A stretch of 64,000 nucleotides of DNA. Origin: Vicinamibacterales bacterium. Its GTDB lineage: Bacteria; Acidobacteriota; Vicinamibacteria; Vicinamibacterales; UBA2999. The notes under the pieces were generated by a model. The model was not told the DNA's origin. It made no database searches and saw only the letters and a program-made list of their open reading frames with translations. Position numbers and translations under genes: made by a program. Location: positions 4,751 to 68,750 of the forward strand of contig JBFWUK010000010.1 of NCBI GenBank assembly GCA_050247355.1. Direction: 5' to 3'. Shown here piece after piece: positions 1,780 to 63,938 of this stretch (position 1 is its first letter; each line of letters begins with the position of its first letter).

Positions 1780-2055
1780 ATGGCGTCCATCGGTGTCCGA
1801 GAGCTCCGGCAACGGGCAAGCGAACTCCTGCGTCGCGTCGAACAGGGCGAAACCATCGAGGTCACGGATCGGGGCCGTCCAGTGGCGGTTCTTTCCCCGC
1901 CGCCGGAAGGCAGCCCGCTCGAGCGTTTACGCGCCCTGGGCGACGTCGACCCAGCGAAGGGGGATCTCGACGAACTGCCCGAACCGCTCGTCCTCGAAGC
2001 AGGAAGCCAACGACCGTCCGCAGTGCTCAGCCGTCTTCGCACGCACGAGCGCTGA
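1780..2055 (+). CDS. Type II antitoxin, Phd/YefM-like
   Basis: N-terminus IGVRELRQRASELLRRVEQGETIEVTDRGRPVAVLSP is typical of Phd/YefM antitoxins. A PIN toxin gene starts 4 nt downstream. Confidence 0.8.
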   Translation: MASIGVRELRQRASELLRRVEQGETIEVTDRGRPVAVLSPPPEGSPLERLRALGDVDPAKGDLDELPEPLVLEAGSQRPSAVLSRLRTHER

Positions 2056-2058
2056 GCC

Positions 2059-2448
2059 GTGGCGACGTACCTCGACTCGTCAGCCATTGTGAAACTCGCC
2101 GTCCGCGAGCCGGAGTCTCTCGCGCTGCGCCGCTATCTCCGGCGAAAGCCGGCGCTGGTGTCGAGCGCGCTCGCTCGCACAGAGGTGTTACGCGCGCTGC
2201 TGCCGTCTGGCGACGCGGCGGTGGCCCGAGGTCGCGCCGTGCTCCAGCGGATCGATCTGGTTCGCGTGAACGATCGCATTCTGAACGCCGCCGGCGTGTT
2301 GCACCCATCGGCGCTGCGCTCACTGGACGCCATTCACCTCGCCACGGCGCACGAACTTGGCGATGAACTGAGCGCCCTCGTCACCTACGACGACCGAATG
2401 GTCACGGCCGCGAAACAGCTCGGCTATAGGATCGTCCAGCCGCGCTGA
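2059..2448 (+). CDS. vapC: PIN-domain ribonuclease toxin (VapC-like)
   Basis: YLDSSAIVKL at the N-terminus, later LRSLDAIHLATA and TYDDRM, giving PIN acidic-residue spacing. Paired with the upstream antitoxin. Confidence 0.8.
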   Translation: MATYLDSSAIVKLAVREPESLALRRYLRRKPALVSSALARTEVLRALLPSGDAAVARGRAVLQRIDLVRVNDRILNAAGVLHPSALRSLDAIHLATAHELGDELSALVTYDDRMVTAAKQLGYRIVQPR

Positions 2449-2849
2449 TGCGTGCGATCATGCGGCTGGCTACGTGGTCGTCACCGATGAATCGGACCGG
2501 GAATGTCGGAGGGCCGTTGGTGTGAGTCAGGCCATTCAAGAGCAGCACGATGCCTCGAGCACGGTCGGTCGACCAAGCGGCGTCGTGTGCCGCCGACGAG
2601 GGCGATTGGGGATGACGGCAGGACCCGAATGGGGCGTGAGCGACCCCCTCCGTCGCCGCGGAGCGCGTCCCGGCGCGTGTGGGGAATCACTCACGCCCTG
2701 GTCCCGAGGTCGGTGAGAGCGCGCACGGCTGAGGCGGGCCGAATGGGGTTCGCCCCACGAGCGCCGCAAGGCGCGAGCCCCAGGAGGCGCGCCCGCGCCG
2801 AGCCCTACGACGGGCGAAGCCCGCGCCCATCCGGCACAAGTGGCATCTG

Positions 2850-2864
2850 ATAACGTGTTATGAT
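2850..2864. promoter_or_regulatory. Inverted repeat ATAAC-GT-GTTAT overlapping an extended -10 (TGtTATGAT, 2856-2864), 6 nt before the ATG
   Basis: Read directly. Same architecture as the promoter at 1764-1779, so a leaderless antitoxin mRNA is likely. Confidence 0.5.
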
Positions 2865-2870
2865 GACGGC

Positions 2871-3104
2871 ATGCGAACCATCGTGGACCTGCCGGCCGGA
2901 CAAGTGGACTCACTGGATGAGTGGTGCCGGCGCGAGGGCGTGTCCCGCGCCGAGGCCGTGCGTCGAGCGGTGGCCGATTACCTGCGAAAACACAACACGC
3001 GGGGCGGCGAAAAGGCGTTTGGCCTGTGGCGCGGCATTCCCGAAGGCGGTCTCGCCTATCAGGAACGCCTGCGGCGGGAATGGGACGGCCGGACCTCGGA
3101 ATAG
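2871..3104 (+). CDS. Ribbon-helix-helix (CopG/MetJ-type) antitoxin
   Basis: MRTIVDLPAGQVDSLDEWCRREGVSRAEAVRRAVADYL is a typical RHH fold signature. A PIN gene follows 2 nt later. Confidence 0.8.
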   Translation: MRTIVDLPAGQVDSLDEWCRREGVSRAEAVRRAVADYLRKHNTRGGEKAFGLWRGIPEGGLAYQERLRREWDGRTSE

Positions 3105-3106
3105 CC

Positions 3107-3466
3107 GTGAAAGCACTCTTCGACACCAATATCCTGATCGACTACCTGAAAGGCGTCGACGCCGCGCAAGCGGAGCTGGCCCGCTACCGCCAGCCGCTGA
3201 TCAGCATCGTCACCTGGATGGAAGTGCTGGCCGGCGTCCGCACCGAGGAAGAAGGTGACGTTGTCGAGATGTTCCTCCGCGACTTCCGCATCGTCGAGGT
3301 GACGCGGGGCATTGCCCGGGAGGCAACAGAGATCCGGCAAACCTCGCGCATCCGCTTGCCCGACGCCCTGATCTGGGCGTCGGCCCGGCACGAATCCGCC
3401 CTGCTAGTCACGCGCAACACGAAGGACTTTCCCAAGGACGAGCCGGGCATTCGCATTCCGTACTGA
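3107..3466 (+). CDS. vapC: PIN-domain toxin (VapC-like)
   Basis: GTG at 3107 gives VKALFDTNILIDYL..., later EATEIR, LPDALIWASA and TRNTKDF. The longer track ORF (2921..) overlaps the antitoxin and is not needed. Confidence 0.8.
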   Translation: MKALFDTNILIDYLKGVDAAQAELARYRQPLISIVTWMEVLAGVRTEEEGDVVEMFLRDFRIVEVTRGIAREATEIRQTSRIRLPDALIWASARHESALLVTRNTKDFPKDEPGIRIPY

Positions 3467-3573: not shown

Positions 3574-3906
3574 GTGGCAGTTCCGAAGACGGCAGACGGC
3601 GTCGAAATCGAGTCGCGCGCCGACGAGAAGGTCGAGCACCCGCGGCTGTGGCGCGTCCTGCTTCACAACGACGACTTCACCACCCAGGAATTCGTGGTGT
3701 GGGTGCTCGAAACCGTCTTCAACATGCCGCCGGCCGAGGCCTACCGCGTGATGATGCACGTGCACCAGGCCGGCATCGGCGTGGCCGGCCTCTTCACCCG
3801 CGACGTTGCCGAGACCAAGGTCAAGGCCACCCAGACGCTGGCCGAGCAGCACGAGTTCCCGCTGCTGGTGACGCTTGAACCCGATCCCGAGGGAGCCCGC
3901 GCATGA
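3574..3906 (+). CDS. clpS: ATP-dependent Clp protease adaptor ClpS
   Basis: PRLWRVLLHNDDFTTQEFVVWVLETVFNM...AYRVMMHVHQAG matches the ClpS core. Its stop overlaps the clpA start (ATGA). Confidence 0.9.
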   Translation: MAVPKTADGVEIESRADEKVEHPRLWRVLLHNDDFTTQEFVVWVLETVFNMPPAEAYRVMMHVHQAGIGVAGLFTRDVAETKVKATQTLAEQHEFPLLVTLEPDPEGARA

Positions 3907-6200
3907 GCCGCACGCCCGTTCCGTTCGCGCCTGATACCCTCGAGAGCATTCGCCGCGCCTTCCGCGTCGCCTCCGAGCGGCGCCACGACCTGGTCAGCCT
4001 CGAGCACATGCTGCACGCGCTGGTCGAGGATCCGCAGGCGCGGACCATTCTCACCAACTGCCGCGTGGACCTGATCGCGCTGCGCAAGGATCTGGACGAA
4101 GTGCTCGATCGCGCGTTCACGCCCGTGCCCGGCCGCAAGGCGGTCAAGCCCGAGTCCACCCTCGGCTTCGACCGCGTGGTCGAACGCGCCGTGGTGCACG
4201 CGGCCTCGTCCAGCGCGCAACAGGTGGAGAGCGGCGCCCTGCTGGTGTTCCTGCTGCAGGAAGAAGACAGTCACGCGGCGTACTTCCTGCGCAAGCAGGG
4301 GGTGGATCGCCTCACGCTGCTGCGCGCCATCTCGCACGGCGGCGAGAAGGAAGGCACCGTCGCGCCGGATGGCGGCGAGGCCACCGTCAAGGATCCGCTC
4401 GAGATCTACGCCACCGATCTCGTGGCCAAGGCCGCGAAGGGCGGCATCGATCCGCTGATCGGCCGGCAGCTCGAACTCGATCGCATGATCCAGGTGCTGT
4501 GCCGCCGCCGCAAGAACAACCCCCTGCTGGTGGGCGAGCCCGGCGTTGGCAAAACGGCGCTGGCCGAAGGCCTGGCGCTGCGCATTCACCAGGACGATGT
4601 GCCAGAGCCGCTGAAAGGCGTGCGCGTGTTCGCGCTCGACATGGGCACGCTGGTAGCCGGCACCCGCTACCGCGGCGACTTCGAGGAACGCGTCAAGCAA
4701 GTGCTCGACGCGCTCGAGAAACAGAACCACGCCATTCTCTTCATCGACGAGATTCACACGATGGTTGGCGCCGGCTCGGCGTCGGGCGGGACGATGGACG
4801 CGGGGAACTTGTTGAAGCCGGCCCTGGCGTCAGGTGCGCTGCGATGCATTGGTTCGTCGACGTTCTCGGATGTGAAGCAGTCGTTCGACAAAGACCGCGC
4901 GCTGTCGCGCCGCTTCCAGAAGATCGAGGTGCTGGAGCCGTCGGAGGCCGAGACCATCGAAATTCTGAAGGGACTGAAGGACTCGTACGAGAAGCACCAC
5001 GGCGTGACCTACTCGGACGAAGCGATCGAGGCGGCCGTGTCGCTGTCGGTGCGTCACTTGAAGGACCTGCATCTTCCCGACAAGGCGATTGATGTGTTGG
5101 ACGAAACCGGCGCGTTGGTGAAGCTGAGGCCGGTCGACCCGCCTACGCTCGCCAGTGGGGCAGCGAGCTCCGGCGAGGCCTCGCCGAAGCAGCCTTCGGC
5201 TGCGAAGGCGGGGACCCGCGCGATCACCGTCGCCGACGTCGAGAAGATCGTCGCGAAGATGGCGCGCGTGCCGGTGCAGGCGGTGTCGAGCGACGACAAG
5301 GTGTCGCTCAAGAACCTCGAAAGCGAACTGCGCGCGGTGATCTTCGGGCAGGACGCGGCAATCGACGAGGTCGCCTCGGCCATCAAGCTGTCGCGCTCGG
5401 GGCTGCGGTCGGCCGACAAGCCGATGGGCAACTTCCTGTTCGCAGGACCCACCGGCGTCGGCAAAACCGAACTGGCCAAGCAGCTGGCGCGGGTGTTGAA
5501 GGTGGAGTTCCTGCGCTTCGACATGTCCGAGTACATGGAGAAGCACGCGGTGTCGCGCCTGATCGGCGCGCCGCCCGGCTACGTCGGCTACGAAGAGGGC
5601 GGGCTGCTGATCGACGCCATTCGCAAGGCGCCGCACGCAGTGCTGCTGCTCGACGAAATCGAGAAGGCGCATCCCGACCTGTTCGCCATCCTGCTGCAGG
5701 TGATGGATCACGCGACGCTGACCGACACGCACGGCCGGCATGCCGACTTCCGTCACGTCATCCTGATCATGACCACCAACGCCGGCGCGCGCGACCTGTC
5801 GGGCCGCCGCATGGGGTTCAAGGAAGCGGGCGAGGGCTCGAAGGCGACCGGCGTGCTCGAACGCGTGTTCGCGCCCGAGTTCCGCAACCGTCTCGACGCC
5901 ACGGTCCACTTTCAGCCGCTCGGCACGAAGCAGATCGAGCTGGTGGTCGACAAGCACATCGACGAGCTGCGCGCGCTGGTGGCGGGCCGCAAGATCACGA
6001 TCGAGCTCGAACCGGCCGCCCGCGCGTGGCTGGCCGAGAAGGGCTTCGACCGCGCGTTCGGCGCGCGGCCCATGGCCCGGCTGGTCGAGAAGTCAATCAA
6101 GAAGCCGCTGTCGGAACTGCTGTTGTTCGGCGACGTGAAAGACGGCGGCCGCATCATCGTCAGCGTGGAGGGCGATGCTCTGCAAGTGAAGCAGGCCTAG
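3903..6200 (+). CDS. clpA: ATP-dependent Clp protease ATP-binding subunit ClpA
   Basis: Two AAA+ modules (GEPGVGKTA and GPTGVGKTE Walker A motifs) with an N-terminal Clp_N-like repeat. 765 aa, adjacent to clpS. Confidence 0.95.
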
Positions 6201-27853: not shown

Positions 27854-28702
27854 TCATGCCCAGAGCCGGATGGCCGCCCCAATCACCATTCCGATCGCGC
27901 CGATCGTCAACGCCATCGCCGGAAGCCCTCGTTGGGAACGCGGCAAAAAGGCGAACAGGTCGGCGACCGTCATCATCATCGCCATCGGCGGCGCCACTTT
28001 CCAGGTGTCGAGACGAGCGCCGGCGCCGGCCGCGTCGAGCACGGGGCCGACGTGTCCCAGCATGCGCATGATCGTTTGGGGCGTCCGAGTCACGGCTTGG
28101 CGAGCGGGCGTGCGACCGGCCGTGACTGCGTGCAGCGCCTCACCAATGGCCTCGCTCTGGTTCGCCCACTGGGCGCGAAAGACGATGACGCCCGTGGGGT
28201 CGATCAAGTAGGCGCTATTTGGCCGCGCTCCGAGCCAGCGATGGAACGTCCCGTCGATGTCGTCGACCGCCACCTCGAAGGGCAGCTGGTGATGGGCCTT
28301 GAGATCAACGGCGTGGCGCAGTTTCTGCCCAAACGTCTTGGGCTGCCCGATAAGGCTTCCCGGGTGAGCTTCGCGTACCTGGATCATGACGAAGCGGACC
28401 TGGTCACCATACTGGGCGTGCAGGTTGCGGAGGCCATCGGCGCCGTCCTCGGTAACCGGGCAAGTCCGCGAGCCAAAGACGAGAAGCACCGGCTGTGCCC
28501 GCCTGGCCAGGTCGGCGCTGTTCAGAACCGTGCCATCCGTCGTGTGCAAGTCGAAAGGGCCGATCACGTCGCCGGGCCCGAGCTCGTCCGCGCGGATGTA
28601 CATGTCGTTCAGGATGTCGGCGATGCGCGGATGATCGAAGCGATAACTGTCGCCGCTCGCGCCAGCGGCAACGCTGGTGGTTCCAACCGTCGTGGTGTCC
28701 AT
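27854..28702 (-). CDS. Thioredoxin-fold protein, iodothyronine-deiodinase-like, with C-terminal membrane segment(s)
   Basis: VLLVFGSRTCPVT and VREAHPG align by eye with deiodinase FGSCTUPPF and EAHPSDGW. The C-terminus is hydrophobic (AMALTIGAIGMVIGAAIRLWA). Confidence 0.65.
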   Translation of the reverse strand: MDTTTVGTTSVAAGASGDSYRFDHPRIADILNDMYIRADELGPGDVIGPFDLHTTDGTVLNSADLARRAQPVLLVFGSRTCPVTEDGADGLRNLHAQYGDQVRFVMIQVREAHPGSLIGQPKTFGQKLRHAVDLKAHHQLPFEVAVDDIDGTFHRWLGARPNSAYLIDPTGVIVFRAQWANQSEAIGEALHAVTAGRTPARQAVTRTPQTIMRMLGHVGPVLDAAGAGARLDTWKVAPPMAMMMTVADLFAFLPRSQRGLPAMALTIGAIGMVIGAAIRLWA

Positions 28703-29019: not shown

Positions 29020-29571
29020 TCAGGCGGCCTTCGACCAGGCCGCCTTCGCGAAGGCGCGATCGAGCGGCGTGTCGGCGATGTGATTCGTGTAGTTGGACAG
29101 CGTCTTGACGCTGACCCCGAGGACGACTTCGAGGGCCTGCGCCTTGTCGTAGCCGGCGTTGGCGAACGCGGCCTTCTCTTCGTCGCTCGGCCACCCGCGT
29201 GACACCACGATGGCGGCGGTGAAGCGACGCAAGGCCTCGAGCCGCGGATTGTCGATCGGCTGCCCCGAGCGAATGGCCTGGACCACCGCCTCCGGCACCT
29301 GTTGCATGCCGGCGATCACGCTGTGCGCCGCCACGCAGTACTCGCAGCGATTCTCGTAGCTGGTGGTCAGCAGCACGATTTGCCGCTCCGTGGGGTTGAG
29401 GGAGGTCTCGTCGAAGAGGTCGACGATGGTTCGGTAGGCGCGCAGCAGGGCCGGCGCCTCGGCCATGACGCCCATCAGGTTGGGTACGAAGCCGTAGGAC
29501 TTGTTGACGCCGGCCAGGGTCTCGCGCGCGGCGGCCGGTGCGGTGTCGATCGTGTGCGGGGTGTAACTCAT
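29020..29571 (-). CDS. Carboxymuconolactone decarboxylase (AhpD-like) family protein
   Basis: Internal ATG (MSYTPHTIDT...). CMD motif ENRCEYCVAAH (CxxC-x2-H). Confidence 0.85.
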   Translation of the reverse strand: MSYTPHTIDTAPAAARETLAGVNKSYGFVPNLMGVMAEAPALLRAYRTIVDLFDETSLNPTERQIVLLTTSYENRCEYCVAAHSVIAGMQQVPEAVVQAIRSGQPIDNPRLEALRRFTAAIVVSRGWPSDEEKAAFANAGYDKAQALEVVLGVSVKTLSNYTNHIADTPLDRAFAKAAWSKAA

Positions 29572-34090: not shown

Positions 34091-34152
34091 GTTGTCTTCA
34101 GTCCCCGGGCCCCAGTCATCGTTACGCCGCACCTTTGATAGACTCCCGCCGT

Positions 34153-34695
34153 ATGGCGCATATCCCTTACCGGTCCGACCATGAGATTCCCGCCGAAGAC
34201 CGCGTCAACGACACTGACAATATCCTGCGCATTCATGGCGTGCACAGCCGCGTGATGCGCCAGCACTTCGATCTCTATGTCGAGTTGATGCGGCGGCCGG
34301 GTCCGATGACCCGAATCCAGCGCGAGATGATGGCGACCGCCGTGTCGGCGGCCAACGGCTGTCACTATTGAACCCAGCACCACGGAGCGGGTCTCCGTCT
34401 GCTGCTCACACGCGACGGCGTCGCACCGCCGGCCCAGGACGAACTGCTCGAGGCGCTGGTGCACCACCCGGACGCCGCCGCCACCAACGCGCCCGACCGG
34501 GCAATGCTGGCTTACGCGATGAAGCTGACCCGGACACCGGCCGCGATGACCGGCGCCGACGTTGACATGCTCCGCGCGGCAGGCTTCGACGATCGGGCGA
34601 TTCACGACATCTGCACGATCGTGGCCTACTTCGCTTTTGTCAACCGGCTGGCGGACGGACTCGGCGTCGAACTGGAAGAGCGCTTCAACGCCTGA
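34153..34695 (+). CDS. AhpD/CMD-type 'peroxidase-related enzyme', candidate selenoprotein (TGA at 34369-34371 read as Sec)
   Basis: Track ORFs 34135..34371 and 34459..34695 are in the same frame, separated by a single TGA. Read-through gives SAANGCHY-U-TQHHGAG, where the family motif is CxYCxxxH. A SECIS-like hairpin lies downstream. Confidence 0.75.
34375..34404 (+). promoter_or_regulatory. SECIS-like recoding hairpin
   Basis: CAGCA-cc-ACGGAG [CGGGU] CUCCGU-c-UGCUG. The apical loop starts 16 nt after the UGA and has G at its second position. Confidence 0.6.
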
Positions 34696-34706: not shown

Positions 34707-35729
34707 CTATCGCCGCACGATCTCCGTGGCGGGAAAGAACGACCGCCACGAGAACCAGTAAGAGACGAACGCCGGCGTGGCGGTCAGCCGCTGGCCCCTG
34801 AGGGGACCCGACACCGCAAGGCCGTCGTAGCCGTCCCAGTGCGATCCGGTGTCGCGGTCGCGCAGCATCGTCCGGTCGCGCTCGGTTCCCGCGGCTTCAA
34901 AGAGCCGGCCGCCGGTGGCGAACACCCTCGCGCCCGACCGATCGGGCGTCGCCACGATGATGAGACCGCCGGGCACGCCGGCAACCGGCAACACAGGATT
35001 GGTCGTCAGTGCCTCGAGGGCTACGGCGTACGGCCGGCCGTCGAGGCGAAAGCCCAGTACCCTGGCCTTGGCATCCAGGGCGCCGGCCGAGGTCGTGCGG
35101 CCGGTGACGCCGATGCCGCCCTTGGCGTGGTAGCCGTCGTAGCGGTCCCGCGTGCCGTCCATGCCGGCAGGGGTCTGCTTCGACAGCACGACGGTCGCCG
35201 GATGCAGGTTGCGCCACTGCTTCCAGGTCATCATGTCTGATGCCAGCATGGTCAGCACCTGTCCCTTGAGCGGACCGGCAATGGCGGCGCCGGTGGCCTG
35301 GGCCCACCACGAGTCGGTCTGGCGGTCGTACATCACGAGGTTGTCGCGCCAGAGCATGCCGGAGACGCCGAACGTGAGTTCGCGGCCGCCGACCGTGCGG
35401 GCATACACGATGCCCGTGTAGCAGAGCGGTCACCAGGTAACGGTGATCGACCTTCCGCCAATGCTGTCGTTGACGATCTCGTGCCCGTTGAGCAGCCAGG
35501 TCGGGTAGGCGCGGGCGACGCCGCCGATCGCAATGCCGATGACCGGCTCCTCGTCCTGCATGAACGTCGCCTGGCCGGCGGCCACGAAGATCGGCTTGTC
35601 AATCGCCGGGATCGCGTCTTTCGGCAGGCCGCGCACGACCGCGTCGCCGTCAATCGTGGCCTGCTCCGTCCACGACAATTGGGCCGAGATCGCGCCGGCA
35701 AACAACAACCACATCAACATCGTGCGCAT
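34707..35729 (-). CDS. DUF3179-family secreted protein, candidate selenoprotein (TGA at 35430-35432 read as Sec)
   Basis: Track ORFs 35430..35918 and 34707..35408 share a frame, with one TGA between them. Read-through gives ITVTW-U-PLCYTGIVYARTVGGRELTFGVSGMLWRDNLVMYDRQTDSWW, where the family has CPLC. Signal peptide MRTMLMWLLFAGAISA. Start is 35729 or 35741. Confidence 0.75.
35401..35422 (-). promoter_or_regulatory. SECIS-like recoding hairpin
   Basis: On the minus strand: GC-UACACG [GGCAU] CGUGUA-(U bulge)-GC. The loop starts 16 nt after the UGA and begins with GG. Confidence 0.6.
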
Positions 35730-35819
35730 TTGGAACCTCATCGGGCGGAGGGACGACGTCCCCCTAGTGGTGTCAGTATGGCCGTGCCGCCCGGCCGGGA
35801 ACCCGCAATTTCTGAATTG

Positions 35820-35835
35820 TGTGATCTGGAACACA
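35820..35835. promoter_or_regulatory. CRP-type palindrome TGTGAtctggaACACA
   Basis: 9/10 match to TGTGA-N6-TCACA. Lies in the divergent region between the DUF3179 gene (minus) and the TlpA-like gene (plus). Confidence 0.45.
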
Positions 35836-35905
35836 GCGCGCCACCGGCGGCTGGGCCACGATCGACCGGGAGCGGCTGACTTTGCCGCGTCTCGGGGGGA
35901 ATGGG

Positions 35906-36472
35906 ATGTCACACTCATCGATCGGTCGTTGGTCCGTTGCCGGACTGCTCACCGCCGGCATGGCGATCGCGCTTGGGACCGAGGCCGCCGGCCGGCAACC
36001 CCAAGCGAACCGCGGTGCCGCGTCCAGGAGCGGGCTGTTCACGGCCGCGCCAGAGCCGCTCCCGGCATTCACCGCCCGGACGCTCGACGACCGGACCCTG
36101 CGCTCCGCCGAGTGGCGCGGCAAGGTCACGATTGTGAACTTCTGGGCGACCTGGTGCGCTCCGTGCCGTGCGGAGATTCCCGACCTGATCAGGTTGCAGA
36201 CCAAGTATCGCGACCACCTGCGGATCATCGGCTTCTCGGCGGATGAGGGCGACCCGACACCGGTCAGGAATTTCATCGCGGCCATGAAGATGGATTTCCC
36301 GAATGTGAGGGTGACACCGCAACTCGACCGGTTGTTCGGTGGGGTGCACGCCCTGCCGATGACCCTGCTGGTCGATCGCGAGGGCAGGATTGTCAAGAAG
36401 CACATGGGGGCCATCGACGCGAGATCGGTGGAAGCCGAGGTGCGCGCGCTGGCGGGACTGCCGCCGGGGTGA
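35906..36472 (+). CDS. TlpA/ResA-family thiol-disulfide oxidoreductase
   Basis: VTIVNFWATWCAPCRAEIP with a thioredoxin fold and an N-terminal signal/anchor (WSVAGLLTAGMAIALG). Confidence 0.9.
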   Translation: MSHSSIGRWSVAGLLTAGMAIALGTEAAGRQPQANRGAASRSGLFTAAPEPLPAFTARTLDDRTLRSAEWRGKVTIVNFWATWCAPCRAEIPDLIRLQTKYRDHLRIIGFSADEGDPTPVRNFIAAMKMDFPNVRVTPQLDRLFGGVHALPMTLLVDREGRIVKKHMGAIDARSVEAEVRALAGLPPG

Positions 36473-36525: not shown

Positions 36526-36756
36526 CTACCGCCGCCAGTTACGAAAGCGCTCGAGCAGCTCGGGACTCACCGGCGGCGGCGCCGGTGAGTCGCCCAGCGC
36601 GCCTATCGAATCGATGGTGGACTTCATCTGCCGCACATAGGTCCGGCAATGCCGGCACATGCCCAGGTGCATGTGAAAGCGCAGACGCTGCATCATCGAC
36701 TGGCGGCCCTCGAGATAGTCGGTAACCAGCTCAGTCACTTCCTGGCATGTCAGCAT
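36526..36756 (-). CDS. zf-HC2 anti-sigma factor (76 aa, no TM segment)
   Basis: CQEVTELVTDYLEG...HMHLGMCRHCRTY is the H-x3-C-x2-C zinc motif. Overlaps the stop of the upstream ECF sigma gene. Confidence 0.85.
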   Translation of the reverse strand: MLTCQEVTELVTDYLEGRQSMMQRLRFHMHLGMCRHCRTYVRQMKSTIDSIGALGDSPAPPPVSPELLERFRNWRR

Positions 36757-37418
36757 GGTGAGCCCTTCAGCGCGTACTGTTCGAGTGCGGACCGGAGCCG
36801 CGACCGCCCCCGGTGCAACAGTACCCGCTGATTGGTCTCGGAGATCTCCAGGATATTACACACCTCGGCGGCGTCGAGTCCCTCTACGTCACGCAGTGTC
36901 ACCACCGCCCGCTGGTTCGGCGGCAAGGCGGCGAGGGTGGTTGCCACGACGGCCAGGGCTTCTCCGCGCAGGAACAACTTTTCGGGCGTGTCGCCGTCCC
37001 AGCCTGTCGGCGGCGACACCCACGCTCCACCGGCGGTGAACCGATCCGGATCGACCGCCGGTTCGTCAGGATCGGCCGACGACAGTTCCGAGAACGTCAC
37101 GGTCCGTTTCTCCCGAACCGCCCGGCTCTTCGCGCGGTTGGCCACGATGGCGAAGATCCAGCTCTTGAGCGCGGAGCGGCCCTGAAACGTCGGCAAGCCG
37201 TTCAGCACGGCCACCCACGTGTCCTGCACCACCTCCTCGGCCACCTCCCGATTCGCCACAAACACTTGCGCAAAGTGGATAAGGGGCGTGTGCAGACGTT
37301 CCACCAGCGCCGAGAAGGCGGCTTCGTCACCGGCTAGCAGCCGTCGAACGAGCGCCAGGTCGCCAGGTGAGGCGATGCCGCCGCCGGAAGCTGGGGACGT
37401 AAGAGCCATCAGCGGCAT
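36750..37418 (-). CDS. ECF-type RNA polymerase sigma factor
   Basis: Region 2 (FSALVERLHTPLIHFAQVFV...AEEVVQDTWV) and region 4 (LPPNQRAVVTLRDVEGLDAAEVCNILEISETNQRVLLHRGRSRLR). Confidence 0.9.
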   Translation of the reverse strand: MPLMALTSPASGGGIASPGDLALVRRLLAGDEAAFSALVERLHTPLIHFAQVFVANREVAEEVVQDTWVAVLNGLPTFQGRSALKSWIFAIVANRAKSRAVREKRTVTFSELSSADPDEPAVDPDRFTAGGAWVSPPTGWDGDTPEKLFLRGEALAVVATTLAALPPNQRAVVTLRDVEGLDAAEVCNILEISETNQRVLLHRGRSRLRSALEQYALKGSPC

Positions 37419-38269: not shown

Positions 38270-38953
38270 TTAGACCACCGCGCGCAGCCGAACGGGGTCT
38301 TTGATGCGGATGTTCTGCCGGCTGCTCTCGACCAGGCCTCGTTGTTTCAGGTCCTGCAAGACGATATTCACCGTCTCTCGAGCCAGGCCAACAAGGTTGC
38401 CGAGGTCGCCCTGGTTGAGGCGAATCGGAATCAAGATCCCGTCGTCGTCCTTGACTCCGTAGTCCGCGGCGAGGTCGAGCAGGGTGTTCGCGATGCGCGC
38501 GTGCGCGCTCTTGAACAGCAACTCCTCGACCCGGGTGCGGAGGCGGCGCAGGCGCATTCCCATCAACTTGGTAATCTGGTAACCGAGCGCGGGCGACTGC
38601 TGGATCATCTGCAGCAGCATGTCGCGATTGAGCGCGCAGAGGACGGTGTCTTCGACCACTTCGGCGACATGATCGCGCGGCGCCTCGTCGAGGATCGCCA
38701 GTTCGCCGAAGATGTCGCCCGGATAGAGCAGCGCCAGGATGGTGTCTTGTTCGGCGCCGCCGGTGGAGATCTTCACGACGCCGGTCTTGAGCAGGAAAAT
38801 CTGGTCGCTGGGGTCACCCGGCAGATAGATGCGCTGGCCGCGCTTCAACTCGAGCATCCGCGCCATCTTCTCGACCGCATGCTTCTGCCCGTCGGTCAGG
38901 GCATCCATCAATCGAAAACGCTGCAAGTACCAGAGTTTGGTGTGGGCGGCCAT
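38270..38953 (-). CDS. Crp/Fnr-family transcriptional regulator
   Basis: cNMP-binding-type barrel (GDIFGELAIL) and C-terminal HTH GDLGNLVGLARETVNIVLQDLKQRGLV, with a CRP-like R-E pair in the recognition helix. No N-terminal Cys cluster. Confidence 0.9.
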   Translation of the reverse strand: MAAHTKLWYLQRFRLMDALTDGQKHAVEKMARMLELKRGQRIYLPGDPSDQIFLLKTGVVKISTGGAEQDTILALLYPGDIFGELAILDEAPRDHVAEVVEDTVLCALNRDMLLQMIQQSPALGYQITKLMGMRLRRLRTRVEELLFKSAHARIANTLLDLAADYGVKDDDGILIPIRLNQGDLGNLVGLARETVNIVLQDLKQRGLVESSRQNIRIKDPVRLRAVV

Positions 38954-38971
38954 CGCCGACAGTATAGACGG

Positions 38972-39226
38972 CTACTCCGGCGGCCGGTCCAATCGGCCAG
39001 CAAGATCCGCCATGCGGGGAATGCCGTACAGCGCCGGACCGCCATCAATCACCACCGCCGGCGTGGCGATCAGGCCGTAGCGGTTGGCCTCGCCGAGATG
39101 GTGAGCGACGTCCAATTCGGTGACCGCGACGTCCGTCCTGTCCGCCGCCAGCTGCCTGACGACCTGCCGCGCTTCGGGACAGCCGACGCAGTGCTCGCTG
39201 TAGAAGAACTCCACCCGGTGAGTCAT
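38972..39226 (-). CDS. Small thioredoxin/glutaredoxin-like protein
   Basis: MTHRVEFFYSEHCVGCPEA (CxxC), then IATPAVVIDG. 84 aa. Lies immediately upstream of the crp-family gene on the same strand. Confidence 0.75.
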   Translation of the reverse strand: MTHRVEFFYSEHCVGCPEARQVVRQLAADRTDVAVTELDVAHHLGEANRYGLIATPAVVIDGGPALYGIPRMADLAGRLDRPPE

Positions 39227-39258
39227 TGCCTCACGATAGGCGCTCGCCGCGGCCATCG

Positions 39259-39274
39259 CTGTGACGCTCCTCAC
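39259..39274. promoter_or_regulatory. CRP-type palindrome gcTGTGAcgctccTCACTgt
   Basis: 9/10 match. Lies in the divergent region between the trx-like/crp operon (minus) and the oxidoreductase gene at 39338 (plus). Confidence 0.55.
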
Positions 39275-39337
39275 TGTTCGGGACGGTTGACCGCGCGCGC
39301 GGCGGAAGGCCGGTGCGGGCGCGGTTATGCTCGTGGC

Positions 39338-40864
39338 ATGCAGTCACTGTCTGCCATCGACCGCCTTGTCGAGCCGCTCGACGCAGCCAACCAGGCGCTG
39401 CTGCGGGCCGTTCATCCCCCTGAGTGGCAGAACCCCGAGCCGCATGATGTCTACGATCTGGTCGTGCTCGGAGGCGGGACCGCCGGCCTGGTCAGCGCGG
39501 TTGGTGCGGCCGGTCTTGGCGCGCGGGTGGCCCTGGTCGAGCGGGCCTTGCTCGGCGGCGACTGCCTCAACACTGGTTGTGTCCCGTCAAAGGCGCTGAT
39601 TCGCTCGGCCCGCGCCATCGCCGATGCGCGCCGCGCCGCCCGGCTTGGCGTCCGGGTCGGCTCGGTCGAGCCCGACTTCGCCGCGATCATGGGTCGAATG
39701 CGAGAGCGGCGCGCGTGTATCAGCGCTAACGACTCGGCCCAGCGGCTTCAGCGCGCGGGCGTGGATGTCTTCCTCGGCAGCGGAGCATTTACCAGCGGGC
39801 GCACGCTCGATGTCGCGGGCTTGACCCTGAAGTTCAACCGCGCCGTCATCGCCACCGGCGCCCGCCCGGTTGCCCCACCGGTGCCCGGCCTCGACGGCGT
39901 GCCGTTCCTCACGAACGAAACCGTGTTCGGGCTCACCGACCTGCCGCCGCGGCTGGCGGTGATTGGGGTGGGACCGATTGGCTGCGAGTTGGCGCAGGCG
40001 TTTGCACGATTCGGCAGCGAAGTCACGCTGCTCGGCCGGGAATTGCACGTGCTGCCAAACGAAGATGCTGACGCGGCCGCGATCGTGCAACGCCAACTCC
40101 TGGACGATGGCGTGCGGTTGGAATTGGGCGTTGAACTGATCGACGCCAGGCGCGACCAGGCCGGTGTGCGGATTCGCTACGAACGGCGCGGTATGACCGC
40201 GGCCGGAGAGGTGACGGCCGATCACGTGCTCCTGGCCGCGGGCCGGGCGCCGAATGTGGAAGGCCTCGGCCTGGATCAGGCCGGCGTCCGCGTCTCAGCG
40301 GCGGGCGTCGTCGTGAACGATCGCATGCAGACGTCTAGCCGGCGCATCTACGCCGCCGGGGACGTGTGTTCGAGGCACAAGTTTACCCACGCCGCCGACG
40401 CCCAGGCGCGCATCGTCATTCAGAACGCGCTGTTCTACGGGCGCAAGCGTGCCAGCCGGCTGGTCGTGCCGTGGTGTACCTACACTGATCCAGAGATCGC
40501 GCACGTCGGGATGTACGAGGCCGAGGCCCGCCAGCAAGGACTCGACGTCAAGACCATCACCATTCACCTGGCGGACGTGGATCGGGCGCTGCTGGACGAC
40601 GAGGCCGAGGGGTTCGTGCGTGTGCACCATGTGGCCGGCCGGCTGGTCGGTTGCACGATCGTCGCGGCGCATGCCGGCGAGTTGATCGGTGAGGCCACCT
40701 ACGTGGTCACGCACGGCGGCACGCTGGCCGACCTGGCGGCGACGATTCACCCCTACCCGACCCAGGCCGAGGCGCTCAAGAAAGCCGGCGACGCCTACCG
40801 CCGGGAATCGCTGACGCCGTCGGTGAAGCGATGGTTCGAACGCTATTTTCGCTGGACTCGCTAA
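39338..40864 (+). CDS. FAD-dependent pyridine nucleotide-disulfide oxidoreductase (mercuric reductase/dihydrolipoamide dehydrogenase-like)
   Basis: Internal ATG at 39338. VVLGGGTAGL, redox-active GGDCLNTGCVPSK, and a second dinucleotide fold IGVGPIGCE. The 971-aa track ORF is an artefactual extension. Confidence 0.9.
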   Translation: MQSLSAIDRLVEPLDAANQALLRAVHPPEWQNPEPHDVYDLVVLGGGTAGLVSAVGAAGLGARVALVERALLGGDCLNTGCVPSKALIRSARAIADARRAARLGVRVGSVEPDFAAIMGRMRERRACISANDSAQRLQRAGVDVFLGSGAFTSGRTLDVAGLTLKFNRAVIATGARPVAPPVPGLDGVPFLTNETVFGLTDLPPRLAVIGVGPIGCELAQAFARFGSEVTLLGRELHVLPNEDADAAAIVQRQLLDDGVRLELGVELIDARRDQAGVRIRYERRGMTAAGEVTADHVLLAAGRAPNVEGLGLDQAGVRVSAAGVVVNDRMQTSSRRIYAAGDVCSRHKFTHAADAQARIVIQNALFYGRKRASRLVVPWCTYTDPEIAHVGMYEAEARQQGLDVKTITIHLADVDRALLDDEAEGFVRVHHVAGRLVGCTIVAAHAGELIGEATYVVTHGGTLADLAATIHPYPTQAEALKKAGDAYRRESLTPSVKRWFERYFRWTR

Positions 40865-60844: not shown

Positions 60845-61189
60845 ATGGCTACGCCACCCCTCGATCGCGAGCTCAAGAAAGGCTCCGCGGAACTGATCAT
60901 CCTGTCGATCCTGGAGACGCGGCCGCGCCATGGCTATGAGATCTGCAAGTTGATCGAGCAGCGATCGAACGGAAGCATGCGGTTTCACGTCGCCTCGCTT
61001 TACCCCCTTCTGTACCGCCTCGAGGAGCGCGGATGGCTCCAGGGGAAGTGGGTTGAGAAGGCCGGTGAACGCCGGCGCCGGTTCTACTCCCTGACCGCGG
61101 CAGGCCGCCGGGTGCTGGCCAGCCAGCGCGACACCTGGAAGGCGTTCGTCCGGGCCATGGAGCTCATCACCGGAAAAGGCCATGCCTGA
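60845..61189 (+). CDS. PadR-family transcriptional regulator
   Basis: KKGSAELIILSILETRPRHGYEICKLIEQRS...SLYPLLYRLEERGWLQGKW...RRRFYSLTAAG. Confidence 0.9.
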   Translation: MATPPLDRELKKGSAELIILSILETRPRHGYEICKLIEQRSNGSMRFHVASLYPLLYRLEERGWLQGKWVEKAGERRRRFYSLTAAGRRVLASQRDTWKAFVRAMELITGKGHA

Positions 61190-63938
61190 CCCTTCGACGA
61201 GCTCAGGGTCAGCGCGAGCGGAGTCGAGGGTTGACTGGCGCCCGGAAATCGTGTCGCGACTGGGTGGCTTGCGTCTCGATCCGGCGCGAGCGGCCGAGAT
61301 CATCGACGAGCTCTCGCAGCATCTCGACCAGCGCTATGACGAACTCCTGTCCGACGGCGCGACCGCCGACGACTCCTACCGCACAGCGGTGAGCGAACTC
61401 CTCGACGCGCAGGCGCTGGCAACCGCCATGCGACCACTGCGACAGGCACGCGTGGCGCCGCGCCAACCTCGCGATCCGCGTCTCGCCCGCCTGGCGGCCG
61501 ACCTCCGCATCTCGATTCGCACCCTCTTCAGGCAGCGCGCCTTCACCATCGCTGTCGTCCTGACGTTCGCCATCGGCATCGGCGCGGCCAGTGCCATCGC
61601 CACGATCGTCGACTCCGTGCTACTGCGACCCTTGCCGTATCCCGATGCCGAGCGCATCGTTCAGGTCGTTCACTACCGCAAGGAGGGCGCCGTGACCAGG
61701 CGCGGGAAGAGCATGGCGCGGCCCTATCTTCTGGGACTCGACCAGCGAAGCCGCTCGTTCGCCGCGTTCGGCGTGTACGACTCGTTCTCCAACATTACCC
61801 GCCGGCGCCTGACGATGAACGTCACCGGCTCGTCCGGCACAGCCGCACTCCTCGGCACCCGTATGTCGCCGGTGCTGTTCGGAATGCTCGGAGCGACGCC
61901 GCAAGCGGGAAGGCTGTTGATCCCCGGTGACGACCTGCCGGAGCGGAACCGGGTCATCATCCTGAGCGACCGCAGCTGGCGGGCGCACTACGGCGGCGAT
62001 GCCGGAGTGATCGGAACGTCGCTGACGATTGACGGCAGGCCTTACACCCTGGTCGGCATCATGTCGCCCGGCTTCGCGTTTCCTGACGCGCAGACCGACT
62101 TCTGGATCCCCTATACCTCGGCTCCGGGGCTGGCGCCGTCGGAACCCCGCTCCGACACACCGAACAGCTATTACGCCGACGGCGTGTTCGCGCGGCTCCG
62201 GGACGACGTCACCATCGAGGCGGCGAGCGCAGAGACGGATGCATTGCTCCGCACGCTCTCGCTCGAGGACGCCGCTGCGACGGGCCGCAAGCCGGAAGAT
62301 ACCGGATTTCCTCCCAGTCTCGCGCGTCGCGGCGAAGTCGTGTCGATGAAGGATGAAATGACGGCGCCGGTTCGTCCAATGCTGCGCATGCTGGCGGCCG
62401 CGGGCGCGCTGCTGCTGCTCATTGCCTGCGCCAACCTGGTCACGCTGTTTCTCGAGCGCAGCGATTCTCGCCGCACCGAGCTGGAGGTCCGCAGGGCGCT
62501 TGGCGCCACGCGTGGGCAGATCCTGCGGCAGTTCGTGGTTGATGGTGTGGTGCTGTCAGCCGCGGGCGGCGCAGCGGGCGCCGCACTGGCCTACTGGATG
62601 GTTCAGCTCGCCGTGCTCGTCGTCCCCTCGGATGTGCCACGCGCGAGTGAGATCGCGGTCACGGCGCCGGTGCTGGCGTCCGCGATCGCCGCGGCGGTGG
62701 TCCTCGGGGTTCTGCTCTCTGTCGGCTCGGCCTGGCCCGAGTCGCGCCGAAGCGCACAGCGCGACGGTGGGCGCCCGCCCCGTCGCTCGCCCATATCAAT
62801 CGTCGTCGCGGAGGTCGCGCTCGCGGTCGTCCTGTGCGTTGGGGCCGGGCTGCTCGTGCGCAGCTTCATCGGCCTGGTGAACGTCAATCCTGGCTACGAC
62901 ACTCGCGACGTCACGACCTTTCAGCTCGTGCCGCCCTTCGGTCACACCTTTGATCCGACGCGCGTTTACGAGGAGGTCCTGTCCAGGCTGCGCGCCGATC
63001 CGGCCATCCAGGCGGTTGCCGCCACCGACATCCTGCCGGTCGCCGGCGCGAGCGCCTTTCATCTCAATCTCGGTGGCCTTCCGGTGGCGCCAGGCTCCGA
63101 CCCGATGACCCTGCGCATTGTCACGCGCCAGTATTTTCAAGCAATGGGGATGCGCCTCGTCGAAGGGCGGACGTTCGCCGAAGCAAGCGCGGTTCCGTTT
63201 CCCGAACTGGTGCTTAGCGAGGAGTTCGTGCGGCGCTACTTCCCCGGCAAGAGCCCACTCGGCCAGATCCTGGACGCCGGGCCGACGCGTTATCAGGTGG
63301 TGGGGGTCGTGAACGATGCGAGGCAGAGCGGACTCAATGCCAGGCTTCGAGCCGAGTACTATGTCGACCTGGCTCGTTTCGGGCTCACAGAAGCCACGCG
63401 CCCGCACTTCGTTGTGCGGAGCGGGGCGGACACATCGTTCCTTGGACCGTTGATTCGTTCGACCGTCAGAAACATCGATTCGCGTTTGGGCGTCGATCTC
63501 AATCAACAGACCATGGCCGAATTGACCTCCGCGTCGGTGGCCACACCACGCTTCAACACCTTCGTACTGAGCGCCTTCGCGGTGGTCGCGCTGGCGCTGG
63601 CGATCGTCGGCATCTACGGCATGCTCTCCCATGCGGTGACGCGGCGGACGCAGGAGATCGGCATCAGAATGGCGGTCGGAGCGGCGCCATCCCAGGTGCT
63701 TGCGATGATCCTGCGGCACAGCCTGATGGTGACCGGAACTGGCGCGGCGGTCGGACTGCTCATGGCGGCCGGAACGACCCGCTACCTGGAGAGCATGCTG
63801 TTCGAGCTGACGCCGCTCGATCCGTGGACATTTCTCGCCGTGGCCGCGATGGCGCTCGTCGTGGCGGTGCTGGCAGCCTATCCGCCGGCCGCGCGCGCCA
63901 GTCGGGTCGACCCACTCGTCGCTCTGCGGCACCACTAG
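61182..63938 (+). CDS. ADOP-family duplicated permease (MacB-like periplasmic domains plus two FtsX-type 4-TM modules)
   Basis: 918 aa. Overlaps the padR stop. The N-terminal cytoplasmic helical region (AEIIDELSQHLDQRYDELL) and two FtsX-like C-terminal blocks (the second ending PAARASRVDPLVALRHH) are typical of acidobacterial ADOP proteins. Confidence 0.85.
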   Translation: MPDPSTSSGSARAESRVDWRPEIVSRLGGLRLDPARAAEIIDELSQHLDQRYDELLSDGATADDSYRTAVSELLDAQALATAMRPLRQARVAPRQPRDPRLARLAADLRISIRTLFRQRAFTIAVVLTFAIGIGAASAIATIVDSVLLRPLPYPDAERIVQVVHYRKEGAVTRRGKSMARPYLLGLDQRSRSFAAFGVYDSFSNITRRRLTMNVTGSSGTAALLGTRMSPVLFGMLGATPQAGRLLIPGDDLPERNRVIILSDRSWRAHYGGDAGVIGTSLTIDGRPYTLVGIMSPGFAFPDAQTDFWIPYTSAPGLAPSEPRSDTPNSYYADGVFARLRDDVTIEAASAETDALLRTLSLEDAAATGRKPEDTGFPPSLARRGEVVSMKDEMTAPVRPMLRMLAAAGALLLLIACANLVTLFLERSDSRRTELEVRRALGATRGQILRQFVVDGVVLSAAGGAAGAALAYWMVQLAVLVVPSDVPRASEIAVTAPVLASAIAAAVVLGVLLSVGSAWPESRRSAQRDGGRPPRRSPISIVVAEVALAVVLCVGAGLLVRSFIGLVNVNPGYDTRDVTTFQLVPPFGHTFDPTRVYEEVLSRLRADPAIQAVAATDILPVAGASAFHLNLGGLPVAPGSDPMTLRIVTRQYFQAMGMRLVEGRTFAEASAVPFPELVLSEEFVRRYFPGKSPLGQILDAGPTRYQVVGVVNDARQSGLNARLRAEYYVDLARFGLTEATRPHFVVRSGADTSFLGPLIRSTVRNIDSRLGVDLNQQTMAELTSASVATPRFNTFVLSAFAVVALALAIVGIYGMLSHAVTRRTQEIGIRMAVGAAPSQVLAMILRHSLMVTGTGAAVGLLMAAGTTRYLESMLFELTPLDPWTFLAVAAMALVVAVLAAYPPAARASRVDPLVALRHH

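Follow-up and report, generated by a model that had tools for sequence, protein, structure and literature searches.

An in-frame UGA in an AhpD-like gene of a Vicinamibacterales bacterium is predicted to encode selenocysteine

In the genome of a Vicinamibacterales bacterium (Acidobacteriota; assembly GCA_050247355.1, contig JBFWUK010000010.1), two adjacent open reading frames (ORFs) together spell out an AhpD-like protein whose redox motif is interrupted by a TGA codon, raising the question whether this codon is a stop, a mutation or a signal for selenocysteine (Sec). Positions below refer to the window, the whole 64,000-nucleotide (nt) stretch that was analysed. The two ORFs, 34135..34371 and 34459..34695 on the plus strand, lie in a common frame with the TGA at 34369-34371 as the sole intervening stop, and translation bore out the claim of a preliminary description that reading through it gives one protein of about 180 amino acids (aa). 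From ATG 34153 the frame runs for 180 codons, ...REMMATAVSAANGCHY[TGA]TQHHGAGLRLLL...FVNRLADGLGVELEERFNA, with the peptide SAANGCHY[TGA]TQHHGAGLR around the interruption. This ATG is most likely the true start, rather than TTG 34135, because homologues open with MAF or MAY-I there and the NCBI fragment call begins at the same place. The complete coding sequence, 34153..34695 (+), includes the predicted Sec73 and ends with the terminator TGA 34693-34695. We consider it highly probable, on the comparisons set out below, that the AhpD-like gene is a genuine selenoprotein gene in which UGA 34369-34371 is read as Sec.

For profile searches, the read-through protein was entered with U as C. It passed TIGR01926 (peroxidase-related/AhpD-like) with 119.2 bits against a cutoff of 81.8, residues 21-173 covering positions 29-174 of the 178-position profile, and Pfam CMD with 40.2 bits against 23, in agreement with the AhpD-type, peroxidase-related family proposed at the outset. 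Two further models stayed below threshold: canonical AhpD (TIGR00777, 20.3 bits, cutoff 191.95) and the AhpD_rel_CFYUT (seleno)protein model (NF041238, 55.1 bits, cutoff 175), which describes a different, longer family. Solved structures were matched over the full length of the protein, namely PDB 3c1l (E 9.7e-24), 2oyo, 2pfx, 6k40 and 2prr (E range 1e-23 to 2e-17), and from these matches an all-helical AhpD/CMD fold is predicted. Judged by sequence, 34153-34695 (+) forms one gene, whose product of 180 residues is predicted to be an AhpD-like 'peroxidase-related' thiol oxidoreductase of the TIGR01926/COG2128 branch of the CMD superfamily.

The redox motif of this protein reads C70-H-Y-U73-T-Q-H-H77, with E58 twelve residues ahead of C70 (active-site codons 34324..34383 (+): E58 34324-26, C70 34360-62, Y72 34366-68, U73 34369-71, H77 34381-83). 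C70-H-Y-[TGA] aligns with C-Y-Y-C or C-L-Y-C of the solved structures, and the TGA codon itself aligns with a Cys (TGC/TGT in the DNA) of Cys-form homologues, the second Cys of C-x-Y-C-x-x-x-H; the placement of the TGA at the second redox Cys was thus upheld by alignment to Cys-containing homologues and to PDB 3c1l and 2oyo. H77 is invariant, and both E58 and C70 are present in every full-length homologue aligned. The spacing of E58, C70, Y72, U73 and H77 equals that of the proton-relay residues of PA0269 (Glu36, Cys48, Tyr50, Cys51 and His55) and also of Mycobacterium tuberculosis AhpD (Glu118, Cys130, His132, Cys133 and His137), and by analogy we infer a relay role for the five residues. The attacking nucleophile of M. 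tuberculosis AhpD is its second Cys, Cys133; if this is correct, the Sec would stand at the catalytic position. Two homologous proteins carry other residues at the Sec/Cys position, Ser in P0014 (CHYS) and Arg in P0030 (CFYR); TCA, CGA and AGA are each one substitution away from TGA.

A TGA in place of a Cys codon might simply be a nonsense mutation or a sequencing mistake, leaving a dead gene; TGA is one substitution from TGC/TGT, and public annotation treats the locus as fragments. We therefore turn to orthologous loci, taken as the best 80 of 570 relatives from a scan with one genome per species. At the aligned codon every one of the 80 reads TGA, never TAA or TAG, in the context C-[HRKLY]-Y-U-x-x-H-H-G-A-G-L-R. 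The metagenome-assembled genomes (MAGs) that carry them are labelled Gemmatimonadota, Acidobacteriota, Neomarinimicrobiota/Marinimicrobia, Calditrichota, Chloroflexota, Planctomycetota, Synergistaceae, Lentisphaeria, Acidimicrobiia, Desulfosarcina, Eisenbacteria and Olavius Delta-1 symbiont. The same TGA, with an identical 72-aa fragment, also occurs in three further independent assemblies (L090-L092). Mismatches between the window gene and the 80 orthologues were concentrated at third codon positions upstream of the TGA (0.26, 0.20 and 0.54 at positions 1, 2 and 3) and likewise downstream of it (0.30, 0.27 and 0.59, codons of the hairpin described below excluded). This coding-type pattern on both sides indicates that both halves are under protein-coding selection in frame, and the downstream half keeps invariant residues as well. 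A pseudogene or an assembly error is at odds with a TGA shared by three further assemblies and by 80 orthologues of different species, and with a downstream half that evolves as coding sequence; by these comparisons we regard it as effectively refuted and give it next to no credence.

Another explanation is that the TGA ends translation, which then resumes farther along, so that a 72-aa and a ~78-107-aa polypeptide assemble into a split protein. Gene callers place starts shortly past the TGA in some orthologues, giving proteins of ~103-110 aa, and a restart codon (ATG, GTG or TTG) lies at most two codons past the TGA in 12 of 81 loci (here and below, counts of 81 comprise the 80 orthologous loci and the window gene, aligned without gaps for hairpin pairing). 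In the other 69, however, the first in-frame start is found 6-62 codons downstream at no fixed position, and in the window it stands at +30 (34459), where a restart would delete the invariant HHGAGLR including His77. Moreover, such a break would cut through the active-site motif, at the cost of its second redox residue, and the stop is always TGA, followed by a hairpin of the selenocysteine insertion sequence (SECIS) type. A two-gene arrangement in relatives, which the preliminary description had named among its grounds for refutation, was seen in none of the orthologous loci; 80/80 retain the TGA and the hairpin core. A split protein is accordingly very improbable in our estimate. Taken together, the conserved TGA, the coding signal, the scattered restarts and the three extra assemblies exclude a pseudogene and an assembly error, as well as a two-gene arrangement that is conserved.

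The Sec reading predicts an RNA signal next to the UGA. In the window sequence, the predicted full hairpin (34375..34404 (+); minimum free energy (MFE) -17.8 kcal/mol) consists of a lower stem, CAGCA 34375-79 with UGCUG 34400-04, an upper stem, ACGGAG 34382-87 with CUCCGU 34393-98, and the loop CGGGU 34388-92. Folding reproduced the shape first drawn, including an apical loop that starts 16 nt past the UGA. When the drawing was compared across orthologues, with the U of UGA as nt 1, its upper 6-bp stem and loop proved conserved and its lower stem did not. The stem joins nt 14-19 (A C G G R G) to nt 30-25 around the loop C G G G N, and 97.1% of upper-stem cells are paired across the 81 sequences. 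For the lower stem (34375-79/34400-04) the value is 40.7%; it is specific to the window sequence, and we rejected it as a conserved feature. Alternative lower-stem registers offered nothing beyond weak candidates (12-33 and 11-35, for example), and other enclosing pairs of some kind are possible in most orthologues. The conserved 17-nt SECIS core, 34382..34398 (+), starts 10 nt past the UGA and encodes part of H77-G-A-G-L-R82.

We compared the hairpin with the bacterial SECIS (bSECIS) consensus, which has an apical loop of 3-9 nt, an upper stem of 4-16 bp, a G in the first two loop positions, a UGA-to-loop distance of 16-37 nt and an MFE of at most -7.5 kcal/mol (PMC13188914 Fig. 2 legend). 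The window hairpin agrees with it on every count, having a 5-nt loop, a G at loop position 2, a 6-bp stem, a spacing of 16 nt and an energy of -14.7 to -17.8 kcal/mol. We also fetched and folded the SECIS of Escherichia coli fdhF, whose apical hairpin spans nt 15-31 with the loop at 22-25, as against nt 14-30 and loop 20-24 in the window. Both have a 17-nt apical stem-loop 10-11 nt past the UGA with G at nt 22-23. They differ in sequence, and the window hairpin lacks the bulged U and has a 5-nt rather than a 4-nt loop; its binding by SelB is putative.

Several results weigh against reading the UGA as Sec. Searches by tblastn with E. coli SelA, SelB and SelD found no selA, selB or selD in the 64-kb window or the 80 loci, the sole matches being two weak GTPase-domain ones (L040 and L049), and an extension of ~1 kb to the left of the window, on a contig of 184.6 kb, held no sel genes. 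ARAGORN found no tRNA-Sec in the window or in 82 loci, and the single tRNA of the window is for Arg. Experimental selenium incorporation was not found in the literature for any member of the AhpD-like CxxU family. The Rfam search gave no match at the gathering threshold, and with E<=10 on 34300-34480 only chance hits to NiCo and Ref68 (E ~1); to our knowledge Rfam holds no general bacterial SECIS model, so this null says little. Taken alone, the hairpin is not unusually stable (z = -0.82; 43 of 200 shuffles fold equally well, in DNA of 67% GC). Since folding of lone sequences was not significant either for this hairpin or for that of the neighbouring DUF3179 gene described below, the argument rests on comparison. 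Finally, the hairpin lies inside the HGAGLR peptide, and its conservation is partly protein-driven. Because the stem is contained in the conserved H-G-A-G-L-R, a fair test has to be made at synonymous sites.

We therefore compared the share of each codon at the hairpin site with its share for that amino acid at all other sites of these 81 genes. Arg is encoded by CGT in 86% of cases at the site and in 8% elsewhere, Leu by CTC in 90% and 29%, Gly by GGA or GGG in 100% and 43%, Ala by GCG in 95% and 37%, and the second His by CAC in 100% and 71%. In addition, compensatory changes were observed: G17 is replaced by A (a Glu codon) together with C27 by T in all four such loci, and one locus has C17/G27. 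These comparisons point to RNA-level selection on the hairpin core beyond the requirement of the protein. We found no description of the near-invariant 17-nt SECIS across lineages, or of its codon and peptide imprint, in the literature on AhpD-like selenoproteins. As a separate observation, the first His codon after the UGA (nt 10-12; 34378-34380 in the window) is CAT in 61 of 81 genes and CAC in the window, His elsewhere in these genes being CAC in 71% of cases; U12 lies immediately 5' of the conserved stem.

Genes of the Cys form offer a view of the same site where no UGA has to be decoded. Among five such genes, the hairpin is intact in one, keeps 5/6 pairs in one and 4/6 pairs in three, and the G-A-G peptide is relaxed. 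This decay fits a loss of RNA constraint following Sec-to-Cys replacement, in a small sample (n=5). Because the Cys forms relax the peptide, the SECIS probably also helps to fix the Gly-Ala-Gly-Leu-Arg sequence that follows the active site. The two best-preserved hairpins belong to TGC forms, L086 (P0012) with 6/6 pairs and the loop CGAAU, and L084 (P0007) with 5/6 pairs and the loop UCUGG; they are possibly 'fossil' SECIS elements of a recent Sec-to-Cys conversion.

How would the UGA be decoded? By the general scheme of bacterial Sec decoding, SelB·GTP·Sec-tRNA(Sec) would bind the apical loop and stem (34382-34398) while the ribosome stands at the UGA, and Sec would be delivered there instead of termination. 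By the chemistry of the AhpD family, U73 and C70 would then act as a selenol/thiol redox pair, helped by Y72, H77 and E58; in the reduction of a partner, either a peroxiredoxin-type protein or a small oxidant, U73 would join C70 in a selenenylsulfide. Alternatively, the UGA might be read by a Trp, Cys or Gly tRNA acting as near-cognate or suppressor, and the hairpin might promote read-through in an unspecific way. Stimulation of read-through by downstream hairpins is known in general, and the lack of Sec machinery in the window and the 80 loci would be accounted for. However, the UGA occupies the position of a redox Cys, a site of Sec substitution in many families (PMC1088965), the hairpin has both the SelB-type bSECIS properties and the geometry of fdhF, and the AhpD-like family and the adjoining DUF3179 are both catalogued selenoproteins. 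TGA is, besides, the usual terminator of the other window genes. It ends 27 of 45, and as an ordinary stop it leaves no room for a global reassignment. On balance we consider non-Sec recoding very unlikely.

Indirect evidence that the organism would decode Sec is likewise good. Some Acidobacteria are reported as Sec users, and for the Olavius Delta-1 symbiont, the source of orthologue L060, five AhpD-like selenoproteins and SelD have been reported. A scan of the 64 kb for in-frame TGAs with a coding signal on both sides returned three only: those of the AhpD-like and DUF3179 genes and an antisense artefact. The last, TGA 62556-62558 (-), has coding-like composition on both sides and was set aside, being most likely a composition artefact antisense to the 918-aa ORF 61182-63938 (+).

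Public records split the AhpD-like gene, as had been foreseen. In GenBank the N-terminal 72 aa are deposited as 'hypothetical protein AB7P34_03435' and the C-terminal 107 aa are lost, and in assembly GCA_050186845.1 ORFs of 72 aa and 78 aa are called at the locus. Database matches fall into three classes: full-length proteins with C-x-Y-C, others of full length that show 'W' in place of the second Cys, and, in large number, proteins of ~103-110 aa that start 1-2 residues past this site. P0001-P0006 and P0008, and about 85 of the top 120 matches, are such stub or Trp forms. The one Trp protein checked in DNA, P0001, has TGA at the position, and on this basis the stub and 'W' classes are the same TGA mishandled by gene callers.

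A second candidate selenoprotein gene adjoins the first. The DUF3179 gene (34707..35918 (-)) is convergent with the AhpD-like gene, the two stop codons lying tail-to-tail 11 nt apart, and is interrupted by TGA 35430-35432 within W-U-P-L-C. The TGA splits the Pfam DUF3179 profile, of which positions 1-64 match ORF 35433-35918 and positions 74-292 match ORF 34710-35408. Homologues have the first Cys of CPLC/CPLT at the aligned position, and the closest relative (L001) again has TGA. A hairpin CGGGCAU/CGUGU/AUGCCCG (35398-35416 (-)), with 7 bp and a 5-nt loop, follows 20 nt past the UGA; alone it does not differ significantly from shuffles (z = -0.10). The true start may be ATG 35741 (MRFQ..., signal-peptide-like). 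One public assembly calls DUF3179 as a single 403-aa gene spanning the TGA, and an NCBIfam search of the read-through protein matched no family. DUF3179 'UxxC/T' (PF11376) is a listed selenoprotein family (PMC13188914, PMC9312934), and the window gene resembles its members in having U-P-L-C at the family CPLC site with a downstream hairpin; it is encoded separately from the AhpD-like gene, on the other strand.

Further redox and regulatory genes surround the pair. To the left are an AhpC-TSA/deiodinase-like protein (27857-28702 (-)) and a second CMD-family protein (29023-29571 (-)). To the right follow a TlpA-like redoxin with WCAPC (35960-36472 (+)), a zf-HC2 anti-sigma factor with an extracytoplasmic function (ECF) sigma factor (36526-37409 (-)), a Crp/Fnr regulator (38270-38953 (-)), a small thioredoxin_3 protein (38972-39226 (-)) and a MerA-like class-I pyridine-nucleotide disulfide oxidoreductase (39338-40864 (+)). 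A same-frame chain of ORFs at 38273-39586 (-) was rejected as a split gene, since it comprises separate genes (Crp and thioredoxin_3) with CxxC intact. At the far left of the window, gene calls of L093 place two toxin-antitoxin pairs (PhdYeFM/PIN and RHH/PIN; ~1780-3466 (+)) upstream of clpS-clpA (3574-6200), and a phage-integrase fragment lies just past the left window end.

We then counted genes within 6 kb of the AhpD-like gene across the 81 loci. DUF3179 is present in 11, a co-location for which we found no report in the selenoprotein literature, and a GrdB/PrdB-like gene in 10 (L011, L020, L021, L033, L035, L038, L042, L048, L052 and L063). The GrdB-like ORF matches positions 197-344 of the 347 in the Pfam GRDB profile (glycine/sarcosine/betaine reductase selenoprotein B), a C-terminal portion, and ends ...ALLVPV at a stop. 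The stop ending these ORFs looks like another Sec codon, as presumed from the sequence, and AhpD-like genes would accordingly often lie near a GrdB/PrdB-like selenoprotein gene. MerR regulators were found in 7 loci (L001, L021, L023, L033, L038, L052 and L068) and MerA-like reductases (Pyr_redox_2) in 8 (L021, L023, L031, L035, L038, L056, L068 and the window). The disulfide reductases near the AhpD-like gene have the MerA-like motif GGTCVNVGCVPSK, and together with MerR they recur in loci of the Gemmatimonadota and the Acidobacteriota. Recurrent proximity to other selenoprotein, MerA-like/MerR and ECF-sigma genes is a pattern of which we found no description in the selenoprotein literature. 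The closeness of DUF3179, GrdB/PrdB-like, MerA-like/MerR and ECF-sigma genes suggests a possible functional module. More speculatively, and with a probability that we rate as low, AhpD-like CxxU proteins might be part of a recurrent selenoprotein module, a stress-induced Sec-based electron-transfer chain possibly serving metal/metalloid and peroxide detoxification, whose near-invariant SECIS would stem from horizontal transfer in which gene and recoding signal travelled as one.

The family as such is not new. AhpD-like (COG2128, CxxU) selenoproteins were first described in Sargasso Sea data in 2005, with 27 sequences (PMC1088965), and 'AhpD-like 1' was among the most abundant selenoprotein families of the Global Ocean Sampling (GOS) data, with 299 sequences (PMC2398784). 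A 2026 review lists 'AhpD-like protein, TIGR01926, CxxU' as a selenoprotein family (PMC13188914), which bears out the statement in the preliminary description that this bacterial class was already known. The window gene agrees with the described members in its profile family, in a Sec predicted at the second Cys, in a SECIS directly downstream and in a G in the apical loop, and both the family and the 80 loci come from uncultured bacteria of marine and soil habitats. We noted no essential difference; the window copy, un-annotated in GenBank, belongs to a MAG of the Vicinamibacterales (Acidobacteriota). Cys-form TIGR01926 proteins (3c1l Mlr4105, 2oyo, 2pfx, 2prr and 6k40) have the same C-x-Y-C-x-x-x-H helix and similarity over their full length, but carry Cys where the window gene has its predicted Sec, and their genes need no SECIS. 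M. tuberculosis AhpD (TIGR00777), the AhpC reductant, has in common the CMD fold family and a CxxC with a Glu/His relay, and by this analogy AhpD-type thiol-disulfide exchange is likely, here via a selenenylsulfide. In contrast to the window protein, it has the motif elsewhere in the chain and His between the redox residues, where the window protein has Tyr, as PA0269 does; the window is without an ahpC-ahpD operon.

The window gene is thus a new, un-annotated member of the known AhpD-like selenoprotein family, and knowledge of selenoprotein families is unchanged by it. Its practical value lies in an annotation fix, as the stubs and the spurious Trp forms amount to a systematic annotation artefact of the AhpD-like CxxU family in public protein collections. 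For the family, the gene provides a clean example of dual coding, in which the SECIS fixes rare codons (Arg CGT, with the shares given above). For the organism, it means that a soil-type Vicinamibacterales lineage has at least two adjacent selenoprotein candidates.

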